Shown here in pieces: positions 28,000 to 40,525 of a stretch of 64,000 bases of DNA. The translations under genes were made by a program, and so were the position numbers. The DNA is from an uncultured Planctomycetota bacterium. GTDB taxonomy: Bacteria > Planctomycetota > Planctomycetia > Isosphaerales > Isosphaeraceae. The DNA is taken from NCBI GenBank assembly GCA_963737655.1, contig CAVTTN010000002.1:2304001-2368000 (forward strand), written 5' to 3'. Below the pieces are notes generated by a model. It saw only the letters and a list, made by a program, of their open reading frames with translations, did not search any database and had not been told where the DNA came from. The stretch's first letter is position 1, and each line of letters starts with the position of its first letter.

Positions 28000-28682
28000 A
28001 TGCCCGTCTTTCGGCTCGACCGCCGGCCCCTGTTCCCGCCTCCCGAGCTGGCCGAGCCCGACGGGTTGCTGGCCATGGGCGGGGACTTATCGGTCCCGAG
28101 GCTGCTCGAAGCCTATCGCCTCGGCATCTTCCCCTGGTACGAGCCGGGGGAAGAGATCTTGTGGTGGTCGCCGGACCCGCGATGGGTGCTCGAACCGGGG
28201 CGATTCGTCGCGTCTCGGAGCCTCCGCGCGACGATCCGCAAGGGGATTTTTGAGGTCCGGTTCGACTCGGCGTTTCGCGAGGTGATCCACTCGTGCGCCG
28301 CCATTCCGAGGAAGAACGAGGATGGGACGTGGATCAGCGGGGACATCGAACGCGCCTACTCGGCCCTGCATGACCTGGGCTTCGCCCACTCGATCGAGAG
28401 TTACGCCGACGGCGAGCTCGTCGGCGGCCTGTACGGGGTCGGGCTGGGCCGGGCGTTCTTCGGCGAGTCGATGTTTTCGACGCGGACCGACGCGTCCAAG
28501 GTCGCGCTGGCGTCCCTGGTCGAGGAGGCGAAGGCGCGGGGGATCGTCCTGATCGATTGCCAGGTCCGCAGCGAGCACCTCCGGAGCCTCGGGCCCACGG
28601 GGTCCCGCGATCGGAGTTCCTCGCCAGGCTCCGCGAGGCGCTGGACGGGCCGACGGCCCCGGGTCGGTGGACCCGGGGATAG
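28000..28682 (+). CDS. aat: Leucyl/phenylalanyl-tRNA--protein transferase, with a frameshift near 28591-28596
   Basis: DGLLAMGGDL, GIFPWY, WWSPDPR, FFGESMFS, DASKVAL, IDCQ. One extra G at GGGCCC restores the expected end LGAHGVPRSEFLARLREAL...W..G* (TAG 28680-28682). Confidence 0.92.
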
Positions 28683-28748
28683 CTCGGGATCGCCTCCCGG
28701 CGGGAAACCTCGATCAGATCCCGATCCGGGAGCGTCCTCCGGGACGGT

Positions 28749-29957
28749 TCAGGCGCCGAACTTCTGGAGGCGGCCGGCGTGGGCCATGGCCAGGGGCATG
28801 ATGCTCTTGGCGAGGATCTGCCCGAGCCCTCCCTGGAGGCACGGCCTCTCGCCGAACGTGGTCACGAAGTCGGGCCGGACCGTCGCCGGGGCCCAGATCA
28901 GCAGGGGGACCGGGTGGAAGCTGTGCGACTTCATCCGGCTGGGCGTCGAGTGGTCGCCCGTGACGATCAGGACGTCCGGCTTCAGCGCCGAGAGCTTCGG
29001 CATCTCGGCGTCGAGGGCCTCGATCATCTCGACCTTCTTGGCGAAGTTCCCGTCTTCGCCGGTGCTGTCCGTGTACTTGTAATGGAGGAAGAAGAAGTCG
29101 TATTGATCCCAGTTCGCCTTGAGGGCGTCCATCTGATCGGCCAGGGTCTTGCCCGGCTCGATCACGTCCATCCCCACGAGCTTGGCCAGGCCGCGATACA
29201 TCGGATAGACCGCGATGGCCGCCGACTTCAGCCCGTAGACGTCCTCCATCGTGGCGATGTCCGGGAACTTCGCGAAGCCTCGCATCATCAGGAAGTTGGC
29301 GGGTTTTTCGTCCTTGAGGATGGCCTTCGCGTGGCGGAGGAACTCGGCGGCGACCTTGGCGGTCTTCTCGCTCCCGGCGCTCCCGGCCTTCGGTTCGAGG
29401 GTGTGGAGGCCGGTGGAGAGGGGGTCGGTATCCGCCACCTCGTCGCCCAGACCTTCGCCCCGGAAGCGGACGACCAGGCGATACTCGCGGACCGGCTCGA
29501 CCAGGGTTTCCACGCCCTCGATCCGGATCGCGCGGAGCTTCTCGACGAGCTTCACGCAGGTCTCGGTGGGGATGCGGCCGGCCCGGCGGTCGGTGACGAT
29601 GCCTTCGCCGTCGATCGTGCAGAAGTTGCCGCGGATCGCCACGTCGTTCGGGCCGACCTCGACGCCGATCCCCAGCGCCTCCAGCACACCTCGGCCGATC
29701 TGGTGGGCGAGCGGGTCGTAGCCGAACAGGCCGAGGTGTCCGGGGCCGGAGCCGGGGGCGATCCCGTGGGCCACGGGGATGCTCAGGCCGACCGTGCCCT
29801 CGACCGCCAGGCGATCGAGGTTCGGCGTCTTCGCCGCCTCGAGCTCGGTGGGCCCGCCCGGCTCGATCGGCAGGCCGCCGAGGCCGTCGGCCACGAGCAT
29901 CACGATCTTGGTCTTGTTGTCCTCGCGAAGCTGGCGGATCAAGTCGTGCTCGTGCAT
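28749..29957 (-). CDS. apgM: 2,3-bisphosphoglycerate-independent phosphoglycerate mutase (ApgM type)
   Basis: DGLGGLP, TELEAAKTPNLD, PGSGPGHLGLFGYDP, DRRAGRI, TDSTGEDG, TGDHSTP. Confidence 0.93.
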   Translation of the reverse strand: MHEHDLIRQLREDNKTKIVMLVADGLGGLPIEPGGPTELEAAKTPNLDRLAVEGTVGLSIPVAHGIAPGSGPGHLGLFGYDPLAHQIGRGVLEALGIGVEVGPNDVAIRGNFCTIDGEGIVTDRRAGRIPTETCVKLVEKLRAIRIEGVETLVEPVREYRLVVRFRGEGLGDEVADTDPLSTGLHTLEPKAGSAGSEKTAKVAAEFLRHAKAILKDEKPANFLMMRGFAKFPDIATMEDVYGLKSAAIAVYPMYRGLAKLVGMDVIEPGKTLADQMDALKANWDQYDFFFLHYKYTDSTGEDGNFAKKVEMIEALDAEMPKLSALKPDVLIVTGDHSTPSRMKSHSFHPVPLLIWAPATVRPDFVTTFGERPCLQGGLGQILAKSIMPLAMAHAGRLQKFGA

Positions 29958-33821: not shown

Positions 33822-34367
33822 ATGTACGTACCCAAGCAGTTGTTCTTCACCAAGGGCGTCGGGGTCCACCGCGAGAAGCTCTCCAGCTTCGAGCTGGCCC
33901 TGAGAGACGCCAAGATCGCCTGCTACAACCTCGTCCGGGTCTCGAGCATTTTTCCGCCGAACTGCGAAGAAGTGTCGATCAAGACGGGATTGACGAAGCT
34001 GGAACCGGGGCAGATCGTCCACGTGGTCATGAGCGAATGCGCCACGGCCGAGCCCAACCGGCTGATCGCCGCCAGCGTCGGCGTGGCGATCCCCCGCGAC
34101 CGATCGACGTTCGGCTACCTGTCCGAGCACCACGCCTACGGCCAGACCGCCAAGCTCGCGGCGGACTACGCCGAGGACCTCGCCGCCGAGATGCTCGCGA
34201 CGGTCCTCGGAGTCGAGTTCGACCCGCAGAGCTCCTGGGACGAGAAGCGCGAGATCTGGAAGATCGCCGACGTGATCTACAAGACCAAGGAGATCACCCA
34301 GACGGCCATCGGCAACAAGGACGGCCTCTGGACCACCGTGATCGCCGCCGCCGTGCTCCTGGCCTGA
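33822..34367 (+). CDS. pdaD: Pyruvoyl-dependent arginine decarboxylase
   Basis: [23 protein letters not shown], self-cleavage site [28 protein letters not shown]. Confidence 0.92.
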
Positions 34368-34402
34368 GTCCGGGACCTCGACCCGTCGGAGGCGGTCGTT
34401 CG

Positions 34403-34789
34403 ATGGACGCGCTCCCCGAGTTGATCCGCGAGTACGCCGCCCTCCTCGATCGCTCCGCCGAGATCGAGGCGAGGAAGGACGAGCTGAAGGCGAAGATCCA
34501 GGAGGCCATGCACCGCGACGGCGTGGCCTTCGCCAACTCCCCCTTCGGCTCGGCCCGGAAGATGGCCCGGTTCAAGCTCTCGCCCAGGCCCGGGCCCGTC
34601 CTCGGCCTCCTCGAACGCGAGGACCTCCTGCCGTTCGCGAATTTCACCTCGGCCAGGGTGACCGAGCTGCTCGTCCCGAAGTATGGCCGAGAGCGATTGA
34701 TGCCCCTCTTCGACGTCGAAAAGACCGAATATTTGCTCGTGAAGAGGCCCTCCGAAGGCCGAGGGGACGACGATGGCCGACGGCGGTAG
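34403..34789 (+). CDS. Hypothetical protein (128 aa) with an N-terminal coiled coil
   Basis: [44 protein letters not shown]; fills the gap between pdaD and the DHS-like gene and overlaps the latter by 17 nt. Confidence 0.75.
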
Positions 34790-35978
34790 CCCCGACTTCC
34801 TCAGCACGATCAGCCAGCACCGGATCGCCCCCCCGGCCGTCACGGGCGCGGTCTCGGCCGCGGACCTGATCGACGGCGCCTTCCTCAGCTACAACGCCGG
34901 GAGGCTCCGCGAGGTCTGCGGCGTGTTCACGAAGAAGATGCTCCGGCCCGATTGCACGGTCGGCCTGACGCTCTCCGGCGCCCTGACGCCCGCCGGGCTC
35001 GGCATGAGCTGCCTGATCCCCCTGATCCGCGCCGGCTTCGTCGATTGGATCGTCTCGACCGGCGCGAACCTCTATCACGACACCCATTACGCCCTCGATT
35101 TGCCCCTCCATCAGAGCCGGCCGAACCTGGATGACTTCGCCCTCCGCGAGAACAACGTCATCCGCATCTATGACATCGTGTTCGACTACTCGACCCTCCT
35201 GGATACCGACGCCTTCTATCGCGAGCTGATCCGCGACGACGTGTTCGCCCGGTCGATGGGCACGGCCGAGTTCCACCACCTCGTCGGCCGGTATCTCCAC
35301 GGCCGGGCCTCGGCGCTGGGCAAGGAATCCAACAGCCTCCTCGCCGTGGCGTATGAATGCGGAGTCCCCGTGTTCACGTCCAGCCCCGGGGACAGCTCGA
35401 TCGGGATGAACCTGGCGGCGAGCGCTCTGGGCGGCGGGGCGTTGCAAATCGACACGCTCCGCGACGTGAACGAGACGGCGGCGATCGTCTGGAAGGCGAA
35501 GCAGGGCGGGGGCACGTCGGGCGTGTTGATCCTCGGCGGCGGCAGCCCGAAGAACTTCATCCTGCAGACCGAGCCTCAAATCCAGGAAGTGCTCGGCCTG
35601 GCCGAATCGGGCCACGATTACTTTTTGCAGATCACCGATGCGAGGCCCGACACCGGCGGGCTCTCCGGGGCCACGGCCACCGAGGCGATGACCTGGGGCA
35701 AGGTCGATCCCGACAAGCTGCCCGACTCCGTGACCTGCTACACCGACTCGACCATCGCCCTGCCTTTGCTCACGGCCTATTCGCTCGCGAGGGTCGGGGC
35801 CCGGCCGCTGAAGCGGTTGTACGACCGTCGCGACGCCGATTACGAGGCGCTCTGCGCCGCCTACGTCGAGGCCCAATCCGCCGACGTGCGGACCGGGATG
35901 GCGTCCCGGCAGTCGCAGGGCCGGCACTCTCACCAGGCCCCTCCCAAACATCCCGACACGATGGACCGCGATCGCTAG
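34773..35978 (+). CDS. Deoxyhypusine synthase-like protein (SpeY / homospermidine-biosynthesis type)
   Basis: [48 protein letters not shown] with the catalytic Lys retained. Confidence 0.9.
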
Positions 35979-35991
35979 ATCGGATCGTTTC

Positions 35992-37011
35992 ATGGACCGG
36001 CCCACCGCGATCCTGAAGGTCGATCCCGACCGTCCCGATCCCGGGCTTCTCGAAGAGGCCGCCCGGGTGATCCGGGCCGGCGGGCTCGTCGCGTTCGCCA
36101 CGGAGACGGTCTATGGCCTGGGTGCCGATGCCACGAACCCCGTTGCCGTGGCGAGGATCTTCGCCGCCAAGGGTCGGCCGTCGCGGAACCCGTTGATCGT
36201 CCACGCGAGCGACGCCGAGATGGCCCGGTCGTGCGTTGCGGCGTGGCCCGACGAGGCCGAGACGCTGGCCGATCGGTTCTGGCCCGGCCCTCTTTCGCTG
36301 GTCCTCCCCCGATCCGATCGGGTGGCCGATCTCGCGACCGCGAACCTGCCGACGGTGGGCGTGAGAGTGCCCGTTCCGGCGGTCGCTCGCGGCCTGATCG
36401 CCCGGGCCGGCGTGCCGATCGCCGCGCCCAGCGCCAATCGATCGAACGCGCTGTCGCCCACGCTCGCCGAGCACGTTTCGAGGGACCTGGATGGGCGGGT
36501 CGATCTGATCCTCGACAGCGGACCCACGACCATCGGCCTCGAATCCACGATTTTTGACGTGACGAGCCGTCCGTTCCGCGTGCTTCGGCCGGGCCCGATC
36601 ACGGCAGAGTCGCTCTCGGCGGCGATCGGGGGCGCGGAGGTCGTCTCGGCCGTCGAGGGGACCGCCTCGGACCGCCCGACGAGTCCCGGGCAACTGCCGG
36701 TCCACTACGCGCCGAGGACGCCCGCGGTGTGGCTCGAACCCGAGGAGGTCGAGGCGTTCGAGCCTCCCGAGATGACCGCGATTCTCCGGTTCGACGGCCA
36801 GGACTTTCCCGAACGTCGGGAATACGCCTTCAGTCTTTCTCTGCCCGATCCCGAGGGGGCCGCGGCCCTGCTGTACCAGAGGCTCCACGTCCTCGACGGC
36901 CTGGGGATCGACCTCATCGTGATCGTGGCGCCACCGGACCGGCCCGAATGGCGGGCGGTCCGCGACCGTCTCCGAAGGGCGACGGCCCGCGATCGCCCTT
37001 CGGGTGCATGA
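35992..37011 (+). CDS. sua5: L-threonylcarbamoyladenylate synthase (Sua5/TsaC2)
   Basis: TETVYGLGADA, KGRPSRNPLIVH, WPGPL, APSANRS, GLESTI, SPGQLPVHYAP followed by the SUA5 domain. Confidence 0.93.
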   Translation: MDRPTAILKVDPDRPDPGLLEEAARVIRAGGLVAFATETVYGLGADATNPVAVARIFAAKGRPSRNPLIVHASDAEMARSCVAAWPDEAETLADRFWPGPLSLVLPRSDRVADLATANLPTVGVRVPVPAVARGLIARAGVPIAAPSANRSNALSPTLAEHVSRDLDGRVDLILDSGPTTIGLESTIFDVTSRPFRVLRPGPITAESLSAAIGGAEVVSAVEGTASDRPTSPGQLPVHYAPRTPAVWLEPEEVEAFEPPEMTAILRFDGQDFPERREYAFSLSLPDPEGAAALLYQRLHVLDGLGIDLIVIVAPPDRPEWRAVRDRLRRATARDRPSGA

Positions 37012-37180
37012 GACGGTCGGGTGCATGAAATGCACCGTCATGTCGGGTGCATGAAATGCACCAAAAAGCGGCGGGCGAGGCCCGCCCTCCGATCCCGGTT
37101 CGGCCTCGATTTGACCTGGGAGAGCGGGGAAGGAGGGCGGCCGAGGGCCGCCGCGGGTTGGTGCATTTCATGCACCCTAC
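37002..37180. repeat. Family D REP cluster between convergent sua5 and ruvB
   Basis: GTCGGGTGCATGAAATGCACC at 37016 and 37042 (26-bp period), a partial copy at 37002, and an inverted copy GGTGCATTTCATGCACCCTAC at 37160-37180. Confidence 0.92.
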
Positions 37181-38244
37181 TCGAAGAGCCTGGGCTGCTC
37201 TTCGAGGTCCAGCTCGATCATCGGCTCGCGCAGGCCGAGGTGGCGATACGCCTTCGCGGTGGCCTTGCGGCCCCGGGGCGTGCGGACGATGAAGTGCTTG
37301 CGGAGGAGATACGGCTCGACCTCGTCGGTGAGGGTGTCCACGGCCACGCTCATGGTCGCGGCCATCGCCTCGGCTCCGGTCGGGCCTCCGTGGAAGACCT
37401 GCAAGAGCGTCTCGAGGTAGCGGCGGTCCTGCTTGTCGAGTCCCTCGGTATCGACCTCCTGCATGGCCAGGGCGTCCTGGGCGATGGTCAGGGTGATGTG
37501 GCCGTCGGCCCGGGCGGTGGCGAAGTCGCGGACCCAGCGGAGCCTCGCGTTGGCCAGCCTGGGCGTGCCTCGGCTCCTCCGGGCGAGCTCCCAGGCGGCT
37601 TCGGGCGTGACCGTGGTCTTGAGCTTCCCGGCGTTGACCTGGACGATCCGGGCGAGGTCTTCCTCGTCGTAGAATTCCAGATGCTCGTGCATGTGGAACC
37701 GATCGCGCAACGGGCCCGAGAGCATCCCGCTCCGCGTCGTGGCGCCGATCATGGTGAACTTCTTCAGGGGCAGGTTGATCGTCCGGGCGTTCATGCCCTC
37801 GCCCAGGACGATGTCCACGCGGAAGTCCTCCATCACGGGATAGATGAACTCCTCGACCGTGGCGGGGAGGCGGTGGATCTCGTCGATGAAGAGGATCGAG
37901 CCCTCGGCGGCGTTGGTCAGGTACGGCATCACGTCCGCATTCTTGGCCAGGGCCGGGCCGCTGGTCATGTTCAGCTCGACGCCCAGCTCGTTGTGAAGGA
38001 CGGTGGCGAACGTGGTCTTGCCCAGCCCCGGAGGCCCGTCGAAGAGGATGTGGGGCAGGGGCTCCTTCCTCTTCTTCGCGGCGGTCAGCGCGATCATGAG
38101 CCGTTCGGCCACGCCTCGCTGGCCGATGACCTCGTCGAGCCGTTGGGGCCGCAGCTTCTCCTCGACCGGATCGACGGGCTTCGCCTCGTCCCGTCGCCGC
38201 TTGCCCTCGTCCATCCCCCCGCCGATGATCGCTTCCCTAGCCAT
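37177..38244 (-). CDS. ruvB: Holliday junction branch migration helicase RuvB
   Basis: LRPQRLDEVIGQ, GPPGLGKTT, FIDEIHRL, GATTRSG, SRGTPR, EPYLL, RTPRGR. Confidence 0.97.
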   Translation of the reverse strand: MAREAIIGGGMDEGKRRRDEAKPVDPVEEKLRPQRLDEVIGQRGVAERLMIALTAAKKRKEPLPHILFDGPPGLGKTTFATVLHNELGVELNMTSGPALAKNADVMPYLTNAAEGSILFIDEIHRLPATVEEFIYPVMEDFRVDIVLGEGMNARTINLPLKKFTMIGATTRSGMLSGPLRDRFHMHEHLEFYDEEDLARIVQVNAGKLKTTVTPEAAWELARRSRGTPRLANARLRWVRDFATARADGHITLTIAQDALAMQEVDTEGLDKQDRRYLETLLQVFHGGPTGAEAMAATMSVAVDTLTDEVEPYLLRKHFIVRTPRGRKATAKAYRHLGLREPMIELDLEEQPRLFE

Positions 38245-38257
38245 GATCGCGGCCCCC

Positions 38258-38304
38258 GTAGGGTGCATGAAATGCACCATCATGTAGGGTGCATGAAATG
38301 CACC
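38258..38304. repeat. Family D REP tandem pair between ruvA and ruvB
   Basis: GTAGGGTGCATGAAATGCACC at 38258 and 38284 (26-bp period). Confidence 0.92.
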
Positions 38305-38367
38305 AACCAGCGGCGGGCCTCGCCCGCCCACCTCATCCTCTCCTCCGCACTCCGCACTCCGAGGCAC

Positions 38368-39018
38368 TCAACCCTCATCCCGAGTCTTGTAGATTGCATC
38401 GATCAGGTCGGCCACGCTCTTGTACTTCTTCTTGCCGGTCAGGGCGCGGTCGATGGCCTGCCTCGCCTGGCTCTCGTTGTGACCGACCGAGAGCAACGCG
38501 GCGAACGTGTCGCGGATCACGTCGGGCTCGGCGTTCTCGGGCTCGCCGTTGGTCGCGACGGGGTGGCGCTCGCCGTCGGCCCCGACGATCAGGGCGAATT
38601 TGCCGACCTTCCTCCTCAGCTTCGCCACGATCCGTTCGGCCGTGGCCTCGCCGATCCCGGGATACGTGGCCAGCGTGGTGACGTCCTGGTCCTGGACCGT
38701 CCTCGCCAGCTCGCGGACCGGCCGGACCATCGCGCGCAGCGCCTTGCGGACCCCCACGCCATCCACCGAGCAGAACACCTCGAAGAACTCGCGGTCGATC
38801 GGCGAGAGGAAGCCCACCAGCCTCGGCGTCATCCGCCCGCCCATCTGGTTCCCGTCGATGTAGAAGACCGTGTGGAGCACGATCATCTCGCCGAGCTTGC
38901 CTTGCAGGTGCCGCCTCGCCTGCTCGGGGATCAGCACCTCGACGTCGAACGGATCGACGGCCAGGATCAACTCCTCCTCGCCCACGCTCCGCAATACCCC
39001 GCGAACTTGTGAGATCAC
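38368..39018 (-). CDS. ruvA: Holliday junction branch migration protein RuvA
   Basis: GTG start MISQVRG; HhH motifs VDGVGVRKA and YPGIGEATAERI; C-terminal ALLSVG domain; adjacent to ruvB. Confidence 0.92.
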   Translation of the reverse strand: MISQVRGVLRSVGEEELILAVDPFDVEVLIPEQARRHLQGKLGEMIVLHTVFYIDGNQMGGRMTPRLVGFLSPIDREFFEVFCSVDGVGVRKALRAMVRPVRELARTVQDQDVTTLATYPGIGEATAERIVAKLRRKVGKFALIVGADGERHPVATNGEPENAEPDVIRDTFAALLSVGHNESQARQAIDRALTGKKKYKSVADLIDAIYKTRDEG

Positions 39019-39070
39019 CCTCGTGCGCTCCGTCCGGGTCGATCGGGCTCGACTGGTGTTTTGTTCATCA

Positions 39071-39099
39071 ATTGTGCCAGGAGTTCCGCCTCGTGGCAA
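39071..39099 (-). promoter_or_regulatory. Candidate sigma70 promoter for ruvAB
   Basis: TTGCCA-17 bp-CACAAT on the minus strand, ~50 bp upstream of ruvA. Confidence 0.45.
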
Positions 39100-40042
39100 G
39101 GGGGGTTCGCGACCTCCGTGGATTATGACGCGATCGAGCGGAAGGGCCATCCCAAGTGGTTTCGGAATGGCCGAGGGCCCTCCGAAGGGGGCGCCGGATC
39201 GAGGGCCGTGAGCCGGTGCGATGGCCCCTCGCCGTATCGTCGACGAAGCCTCGCCGAAAGCCTCCGCATTCCCCGGCGGATTCGACCCGCCGTTCGAGAT
39301 CGACCCGAACGGGGCTCGCCGTTGGGCTGGCCTCGCCGGAACGGGAGGCGGGCTTCGGCAAGACTTCGAGCATGACTCCGGGACGGCTCGATGGCGAACT
39401 CATCACGTAGCAACGTGCGACGAAGATCGAGCCCCAGCCGTTGACGACGACGACCGAGGGCGCTCGTCTCGTCCCCGATGATCGACTCGCCTTCGCTCGA
39501 CGCGACGAAGCTTGCGACGACGGCGCGGACGTCCTCGCGGACCTCGATGCGCGGAAGCCACGGGGCTCGTCGGGCAGTCTGTTTTCCTTCGGGGCCATCC
39601 GCCCTCGCGATGGGGCGAGCTTTGACGGCGCGAGCCTCCGCGCGAGGCCTCGTGTCTTCGAAAAAAACTTCGTGTGCGCGAGTTTTTTTCTCGCGCCCGA
39701 GATCGTGATGAGGCGCTCGCGAGATCGCGCGCGAAAGCGCGACGGCAGGGCGCGACGTGCGCGCTTCGACGCGGCGCATTCCCACTGTTTTTCGCTGTTC
39801 GTCGCGCTTCGATTAGTAAAATTGTATGAAATGACGTGGGAATTCGAAGGATTCCTTGGTGCGATCAGATTCGGAATTGACCGATGAGAGAGGCCATTTT
39901 CCGCATGAAAACCGAAAAAATCGGGGGATTCCGACCCGTCTTGATCTTCCCTACGGTGATATATTTCGCTAAGAACTCCTGGCGAGATCGACAACTTGGT
40001 GTCGATCGGCTGGAGTGTCTCCTGGATTGAGGGCCTGAAGCG

Positions 40043-40525
40043 ATGGCGGCGAAGAAGGCGAGCGAGAGCACCAAGGACGCGGCGACGACAACCAAGGCCG
40101 GCACCAAGAAGGCCGGGGTGAAGAAGACGCCCGTGAAGAAGGCGACGAAGGCCAAGGCCGAGACCGCCACGAAGTCGGGCACGCCGAAGGCGGCCAAGAA
40201 GCCCGCCGCCAAGGCCGCGGCGCCGGCCGCGGCGCCGGCCCCCAAGAAGGCGGCGGCGGCGAAGAAGGCGCCCGTCAAGCTCAACGACCGGCAGCTCGAG
40301 TTCCTCAAGAAGATCAAGGACTCGGGCGAGGCCGGCTACTCGATCGGTCAGAAGGTCGAGCAGCGCACGATCGAGGCGCTTCAGGATCGCAAGCTCCTGA
40401 AGAAGGGCCCGAAGAACAAGGAGACCGGCAAGCACCACTACATGCTCACCAAGGCCGGCGAGAAGCACCTCACCACCTCCGGCACGCCCGAGGGCGGCGC
40501 CGGCTCGACCACCACCGGCGCCTGA
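40043..40525 (+). CDS. Histone H1-like Lys/Ala-rich protein with a C-terminal winged-helix-like domain
   Basis: ~78-aa K/A/T/P tail (KAAKKPAAK, PKKAAAAKKAP), then LNDRQLEFLKKI...TIEALQDRKLL...YMLTKAGEKHL. Confidence 0.85.
   Translation: MAAKKASESTKDAATTTKAGTKKAGVKKTPVKKATKAKAETATKSGTPKAAKKPAAKAAAPAAAPAPKKAAAAKKAPVKLNDRQLEFLKKIKDSGEAGYSIGQKVEQRTIEALQDRKLLKKGPKNKETGKHHYMLTKAGEKHLTTSGTPEGGAGSTTTGA

Follow-up and report, generated by a model that had tools for sequence, protein, structure and literature searches.

Gene content of the locus

The locus described here lies in a 64,000-nt stretch of contig CAVTTN010000002.1 (positions 2,304,001 to 2,368,000, referred to as the window) from the 87.7% complete genome of an uncultured planctomycete of the family Isosphaeraceae (GCA_963737655.1). 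Unless a contig or locus is named, coordinates are positions in this window. Four tightly packed, co-directional genes are found at this site, pdaD, orf128, speY and sua5, and the distances of 35, -17 and 13 nt between them, which had been given in a first-pass annotation, were reproduced. Together with two genes encoded elsewhere in the genome, pdaD and speY probably provide a route from arginine to homospermidine, in which sua5 and orf128 would be co-located passengers.

The gene pdaD (33822..34367, forward strand) encodes a pyruvoyl-dependent arginine decarboxylase (arginine to agmatine) of 181 amino acids (aa). It matches PF01862 with 208 bits and TIGR00286 above the cut-off, and it falls narrowly under the cut-off of NF009064 (197.7 vs. 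207). A Ser41-Ser42 pair is present, which we take to be the self-cleavage site. The uncharacterised small protein of 128 aa encoded by orf128 (34403..34789, forward strand) has a predicted long N-terminal helix followed by a beta-hairpin and a helical domain. It overlaps speY (34773..35978, forward strand; 401 aa), which encodes a bacterial homologue of deoxyhypusine synthase (DHS) of the PRK00770 subfamily. The last gene, sua5 (TsaC2; 35992..37011, forward strand; 339 aa), encodes the two-domain form of threonylcarbamoyl-AMP synthase for t6A (PF01300 and PF03481). It exceeds the TIGR00057 cut-off (183.5 vs. 123.2), the Sua5_C domain was also matched in the profile search, and it is the single match in this genome.

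Across all four genes, GC3 ranges from 0.84 to 0.93 and GC2 from 0.42 to 0.55, and this profile gives orf128 a coding signature. A promoter and terminator scan of the locus returned nothing above chance, with 0 promoters and 3 terminator-like sites compared to 2.0 expected. The four genes are presumably co-transcribed.

Subfamily and active site of SpeY

By family model, the DHS homologue is a SpeY member. It matches NF001980 ('homospermidine biosynthesis protein') with 560.8 bits at a cut-off of 450, and it fails both NF002699 (161.5 bits, cut-off 500) and the model for true DHS, TIGR00321 (167.4 bits, cut-off 304.25). A genome search identified speY as the sole gene of the DHS family. The fold and the catalytic Lys/Trp/Glu motif are shared with the eukaryotic and archaeal DHS enzymes acting on eIF5A and aIF5A (PDB matches with E-values from 3e-16 to 1e-8). 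The catalytic lysine, already described as intact in the first-pass annotation, is K310 within the EAMTWGK motif, and the Leu...WGK span is retained in 118 of the 119 close homologues.

Other positions differ from DHS. Human Asp243, Asp316 and His288 correspond to Met212, Leu297 and Asn261, whereas equivalents of human Glu323, Trp327 and Lys329 are retained; the human numbering is in part our assumption, and the remainder follows PMC10981699. According to the same source, two agmatines are coupled by CdmS, the DHS homologue of Thermus. Its residues were mapped by their offsets from the catalytic lysine through a PRK02492 homologue (L191) and not through the CdmS sequence itself, which is possible since all six CdmS offsets are exact in that homologue. 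At the mapped site SpeY has K310, M212, L297, E304 and D146. Equivalents of CdmS Asp143, Leu286, Glu293 and Lys299 are retained, and Phe204 is replaced by Met. Judged from these residues, the SpeY site is CdmS-like and not DHS-like.

In the phage collection, speY had no match. Five plasmid records match it at about 33% identity, and both of the two that could be classified belong to PRK02492.

Agmatinase absence and the AguA- and AguB-like genes

The absence of an agmatinase, noted in the first-pass annotation for the window, extends to the 87.7% complete genome, where the arginase/ureohydrolase family PF00491 has no match. The search for speB or aguAB proposed there was productive in its second part, since an AguA-like gene (C2:2918743-2919792; PF04371, 394 bits) and an AguB-like gene (C2:2479599-2480435) were found. 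The former adjoins an ORF that, read by eye, is transaldolase-like. The two genes are 438 kb apart, and neither is linked to the speY locus. The absent hydrolase is therefore no longer regarded as a puzzle, because AguA- and AguB-like genes are encoded elsewhere in the genome.

To place this genome among its relatives, 121 genomes of the order, all of one family and 47 of them of high quality, were surveyed. The genes aguA and aguB are present in 114 and 110 of these genomes, respectively, and both, like sua5, in all 47 high-quality genomes. PF00491 was matched in only 15 of the 121 and in one of the 47. In 88 of the 108 genomes with both genes, aguA and aguB are no more than 5 kb apart, which supports the identity of AguB.

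PF16653 has no match in this genome, in a search whose controls did not include any known homospermidine synthase (HSS), and no SpeE scores over the cut-off. The sole AR-fold decarboxylase of the genome matches LysA best. In the family, a scan for PF01564 gave mostly weak or partial matches inside long frames and carried little information.

Conservation of the gene order

Linkage was counted by script from gene coordinates, with speY and sua5 regarded as linked at a distance of up to 1.5 kb on one strand. Duplicate copies from genome G382 and some small fragments were left out of the counts, and eight rows of a distant DHS subfamily were kept separate. In G382, the pdaD-orf128-speY-sua5 block is present on three contigs (C14, C18 and C31), two of them fragmentary, which is probably assembly redundancy.

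A close speY is present in 104 of the 121 family genomes. It is linked to sua5 in 99 of 102 genomes, the three misses being on separate contigs, and to pdaD in 95 of the 96 genomes holding both. Since the family genomes are kin, this linkage reflects inheritance and is not independent support. The ORFs of ruvB and ruvA (37177..39150, reverse strand; NF000868, TIGR00635 and TIGR00084 above cut-off), which were drawn from upstream GTG/ATG codons and have their real starts further inside, are convergent with sua5, and ruvB is found beside sua5 in this orientation in 10 of 14 hand-chosen relative sua5 loci. The conserved block therefore ignores function and strand, and ruvB and ruvA are functionally unrelated members of the same syntenic block.

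Outside the family, the comparison covered the best 29 speY loci of a 300-genome sample of the phylum and the best 29 pdaD loci of 80 matching genomes. None of these speY loci has pdaD, sua5 or orf128 within 1.5 kb, and none of these pdaD loci has sua5. A ureohydrolase-like gene is found at 11 of the 29 pdaD loci and a DHS homologue of other subfamilies at two. Conservation of the neighbourhood across Planctomycetota, put forward in the first-pass annotation as a check, was thus seen inside the family and not at these outside loci.

Within the family, three genomes (G360, G378 and G379) carry a DHS-like gene of another subfamily at an unlinked site (L178, L180 and L181), with PRK02492 above the cut-off for L178 and L180. 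In G360, pdaD, the DHS homologue and sua5 are all unlinked. The presence of the other DHS-like subfamily in these three genomes suggests that one SpeY subfamily was replaced by another within the family. At a further locus (L133, G345:C3:38552-39346), a PF16653 gene of the saccharopine dehydrogenase/HSS/CASDH type is found upstream of pdaD-orf128-speY, at a distance of about 1.6 kb.

Proposed pathway and its relation to published routes

PdaD would convert arginine to agmatine, and SpeY, with NAD+ and an imine at Lys310, would couple two agmatines to N1,N9-bis(guanidino)homospermidine (G44G). The AguA- and AguB-like enzymes are then predicted to convert G44G through a bis-carbamoyl intermediate to homospermidine. 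The present analysis shows which genes these are, their residues, where they occur and how they are arranged, and the G44G chemistry comes from other SpeY proteins in print; that the proteins encoded here have these activities, that AguB carries out its step and that sua5 and orf128 are passengers is what we infer.

The first-pass annotation had guessed that agmatine is used directly to form a guanidino-polyamine. This guess, likewise inferred for the present enzyme, equals the published SpeY/CdmS mechanism (PMC10981699, PMC13625781), and the locus is therefore not the undescribed system that it had been taken for. According to PMC13625781, G44G was formed from agmatine by all seven SpeYs tested from diverse phyla. 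Both sources describe its conversion to homospermidine by a ureohydrolase or by AguA and AguB. Nine iminohydrolases were co-expressed with a SpeY, and each of them turned G44G into the bis-carbamoyl product (PMC13625781, Table 5); the final amidohydrolase step on this product (C44C) was outside the assays of that study.

The present locus agrees with the SpeY/CdmS pathway (PMC10981699, PMC13625781) in the DHS fold with its catalytic lysine, the hydrophobic residues replacing human Asp243 and Asp316, an arginine decarboxylase directly upstream, the lack of a match to putrescine-dependent HSS, and an iminohydrolase and an amidohydrolase to finish where the ureohydrolase is absent. It differs in its neighbours sua5 and orf128, of which the text of these two papers makes no mention. 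Among individual organisms, Gimesia maris likewise has its decarboxylase gene, speDA, directly upstream of speY, its aguA and aguB genes elsewhere and no linked agmatinase (PMC10407285). In Rhizorhabdus wittichii, the pair of arginine decarboxylase (ADC) and speY is reported with the iminohydrolase and amidohydrolase genes (AIH/NCPAH) elsewhere, and its SpeY makes G44G (PMC13625781). Unlike these two, which use SpeDA or an AR-fold enzyme, the present locus has a pyruvoyl decarboxylase of the PdaD fold. A pyruvoyl ADC fold beside speY is described for the pylADC-speY-speB cluster of Caldilinea aerophila, whose SpeY also makes G44G (PMC13625781); there, however, the G44G ureohydrolase is linked, and none is present at this locus.

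The expected product fits what is listed for the group. Homospermidine is common in planctomycetes and is the sole polyamine listed for Isosphaera pallida (PMC4334474, Table 8). Planctomycetes are not mentioned in the main text of PMC13625781. The literature search, whose coverage did not extend to subscription journals, found no paper combining sua5, deoxyhypusine synthase and arginine decarboxylase, and nothing among titles and abstracts that deals with this operon. The locus is likely mostly ordinary, an Isosphaeraceae member of a known homospermidine route. If so, the Isosphaeraceae join a pathway described between 2023 and 2026, and their homospermidine is explained without an agmatinase, which is useful for annotation.

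Evidence against the pathway and possible alternative substrates

Several observations weigh against this pathway. Of the four guanidinium contacts modelled for CdmS (Ser67, Glu136, Asp143 and Glu293), only two are retained in SpeY, since Ser67 corresponds to Ala70 and Glu136 to Tyr139. Fourteen control genomes, with Thermus among them, all failed NF001980. No assayed SpeY could be placed in PRK00770, and the CdmS numbering fits PRK02492. AguA and AguB both score below their NCBIfam equivalog cut-offs (for AguB, 292 bits against 410 for TIGR03381). Scanning 60 crude ORF calls around the outside speY loci, an AR-fold gene resembling ornithine decarboxylase (ODC) was found beside a PRK00770 speY in 6 of the 29 loci, all from other Planctomycetota, and an agmatinase in one. 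The ODC-like genes encode about 380 aa each (L022:220-1374, L023:2680-3822, L024:290-1471, L026:1-1383, L029:166-1347 and L030:232-1422), and the best PDB match of the L023 protein is the lysine/ornithine decarboxylase 5gjm (E-value 5e-86). The pairing of SpeY with an AR-fold ODC is reported only for alpha-Proteobacteria and Coxiella (PMC13625781).

The distribution of genes without speY adds two further points. In 11 of the 13 pdaD genomes without a close speY, pdaD abuts sua5 at a distance of 24-74 nt (examples are L172-L176 from G389, G393, G390, G378 and G379). These 11 include all nine genomes of the genus g285, and all nine keep aguA and aguB without a speY match. An ancestral run of three genes that cleanly lost speY would be a simple explanation of the abutment. 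The AguA kept there probably acts on a substrate other than G44G. In g285, neither a speY nor a PF16653 match would account for the polyamine end product; as it appears to have cleanly lost speY with pdaD, aguA and aguB kept, the genus is a natural control for polyamine profiling.

These observations could be accommodated if the product is still homospermidine, but the PRK00770 SpeY uses putrescine, or agmatine and putrescine through a mono-guanidino intermediate. In that case the place of AguA and AguB would be upstream of SpeY, where they would convert agmatine to putrescine in the ordinary way. The altered contacts, the ODC-like neighbours and the retention of pdaD, aguA and aguB in g285 favour such a scheme, and PMC13625781 gives the mechanism of the cyanobacterial SpeY as not known, with no Anabaena SpeY among those tested. 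On the other hand, the seven SpeYs tested all made G44G, and several ODC homologues adjoining speY turned out to be arginine decarboxylases (PMC13625781). All six genomes with an ODC-like neighbour also have pdaD. The CdmS contacts stem from a docking model and not from a structure (PMC10981699), and Ala likewise occupies position 70 in L168, a homologue encoded together with pdaD and a ureohydrolase gene in one cluster. Putrescine use is therefore considered rather unlikely. It would break the 'mutually exclusive' rule of PMC13625781, and although we give it little credence, it is the milder and likelier of the possible novelties here. PRK00770 may never have been assayed directly, and the two altered modelled contacts and the ODC-like neighbours bear on the claimed agmatine-only rule.

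It is very unlikely that G44G (diagmatine) is itself the end product, with the AguA of this family acting on agmatine only and the guanidino-polyamine accumulating. The lack of a ureohydrolase in this genome and in 46 of the 47 high-quality family genomes would be in line with this, as would the retention of AguA where speY is missing, but the nine iminohydrolases converted G44G without exception and homospermidine is common in the phylum.

The proposed translation link

The first-pass annotation had also proposed modification of a protein lysine and, from the presence of sua5, a role in translation. In this explanation, SpeY would transfer a (guanidino)butyl group to a lysine of orf128 or of elongation factor P (EF-P), or agmatine would feed a tRNA modification tied to Sua5. 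Besides the tight packing of the genes, the persistent adjacency of sua5 to speY, and to pdaD where a close speY is missing, would suit it. In addition, 2 of the 29 outside loci, both from one family, have efp on the strand opposite to speY and no more than 1.5 kb from it (L005:3217-3789 and L010:2702-3280).

Other evidence speaks against it. A Pfam search found EF-P and an EfpL-like paralogue in the genome, where a search with a hand-made EF-P motif had found nothing. The loop tip of EF-P, whose position we take from the Pro-Gly-Lys motif, is Asn, as it is in the two efp genes near outside speY loci, and EfpL has no tip lysine either. EF-P was rejected as a SpeY substrate for this reason, which is a further difference from eukaryotic and archaeal DHS. 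The native planctomycete EF-P is described as being of unknown modification and EfpL as sporadic in Isosphaeraceae (PMC11388002).

An agmatidine-type tRNA modification was also rejected, because TiaS (PF08489) has no match in this incomplete genome, whereas the four archaeal controls match. TilS is present. The likeness to the archaeal PdaD-TiaS system, which we take to combine agmatine supply with tRNA modification, is therefore confined to a PdaD-type enzyme adjoining a tRNA modification gene. Sua5 has a housekeeping role in tRNA modification. Given that its link to speY and pdaD was not seen outside the family, that the block runs on into ruvB and ruvA, and that the genes of G360 are all unlinked, sua5 is likely an inherited neighbour, and the translation link of the locus is weak.

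Probable origin and distribution of orf128

No match to orf128 was found in Pfam or NCBIfam. At 90% identity its family falls into 32 clusters, one of them its own and the other 31 being 50-71% identical to it, and 35 representatives of a 50% clustering were found at an E-value of 0.001 or lower among 1.84 billion. Within the Isosphaeraceae survey, orf128 is present in 19 of the 121 genomes. Eight copies from five genera lie between pdaD and speY, and eleven lie elsewhere. It is thus absent from 102 genomes, among them one of 96% completeness in the same genus, and from the operons of 96 of the 104 speY-bearing genomes. Of 15 orf128 loci in GTDB, two are in this operon and the rest have varied neighbours (55 ORFs from 11 loci were scanned). 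For these reasons, orf128 was rejected as a required component. At two loci (L072 and L079, from two genomes), orf128 homologues are divergent from a broken Lhr-type helicase gene, with genes for a Ser/Thr kinase and a PP2C paired nearby.

A tree of 22 rows, with 6 of its 19 inner branches well supported, needs two to three changes for the position beside speY. It fits a single insertion followed by losses as well as several insertions and cannot separate the two.

The structure model of orf128 (pLDDT 83) gave 19 matches in BFVD at an E-value of 0.001 or lower, mostly uncharacterised viral proteins with TM-scores up to about 0.67, and it also resembles a phage PD-(D/E)XK protein in that database. 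The RecE-like phrog_434 is matched by 20 of 31 members, weakly (best E-value 3e-4) and in the first helix only. A fold search against the PDB returned coiled-coil matches alone (best Z 4.5), which show neither a new nor a known fold. orf128 is likely a phage-derived passenger that may resemble small uncharacterised phage proteins, of the Gp157-like kind, and the tail of RecE-like exonucleases.

Two lysines of orf128, the invariant Lys25 and Lys93 (30 of 31 members), and its position between pdaD and speY in five genera would suit a modified protein, but the modelled fold appears closer to phage proteins than to eIF5A. A translation-linked system at this locus is accordingly regarded as highly improbable. 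The same holds for its most far-reaching form, in which the agmatine supply of the Isosphaeraceae is tied to translation, either because tRNA or Sua5 is modified or regulated by agmatine or by a product of SpeY, so that pdaD is held with sua5 also in genomes that lack speY, or because SpeY guanidinobutylates a conserved lysine of orf128 as a bacterial counterpart of hypusine formation.

Further features of the window

Short repeats with a TGCATGAAATGCAC-like palindromic core are present at 37020-37160, in the interval between sua5 and ruvB, and at about 38270-38310 in the region of the ruvB start. An ORF at 28000-29082 resembles, read by eye, a leucyl/phenylalanyl-tRNA-protein transferase; after about residue 200 it looks unrelated, and a frameshift is possible. 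Beyond ruvA, a Lys/Ala-rich histone-like protein of 160 aa is encoded at 40043-40525, and its C-terminal part is kept near ruvA in several relatives.

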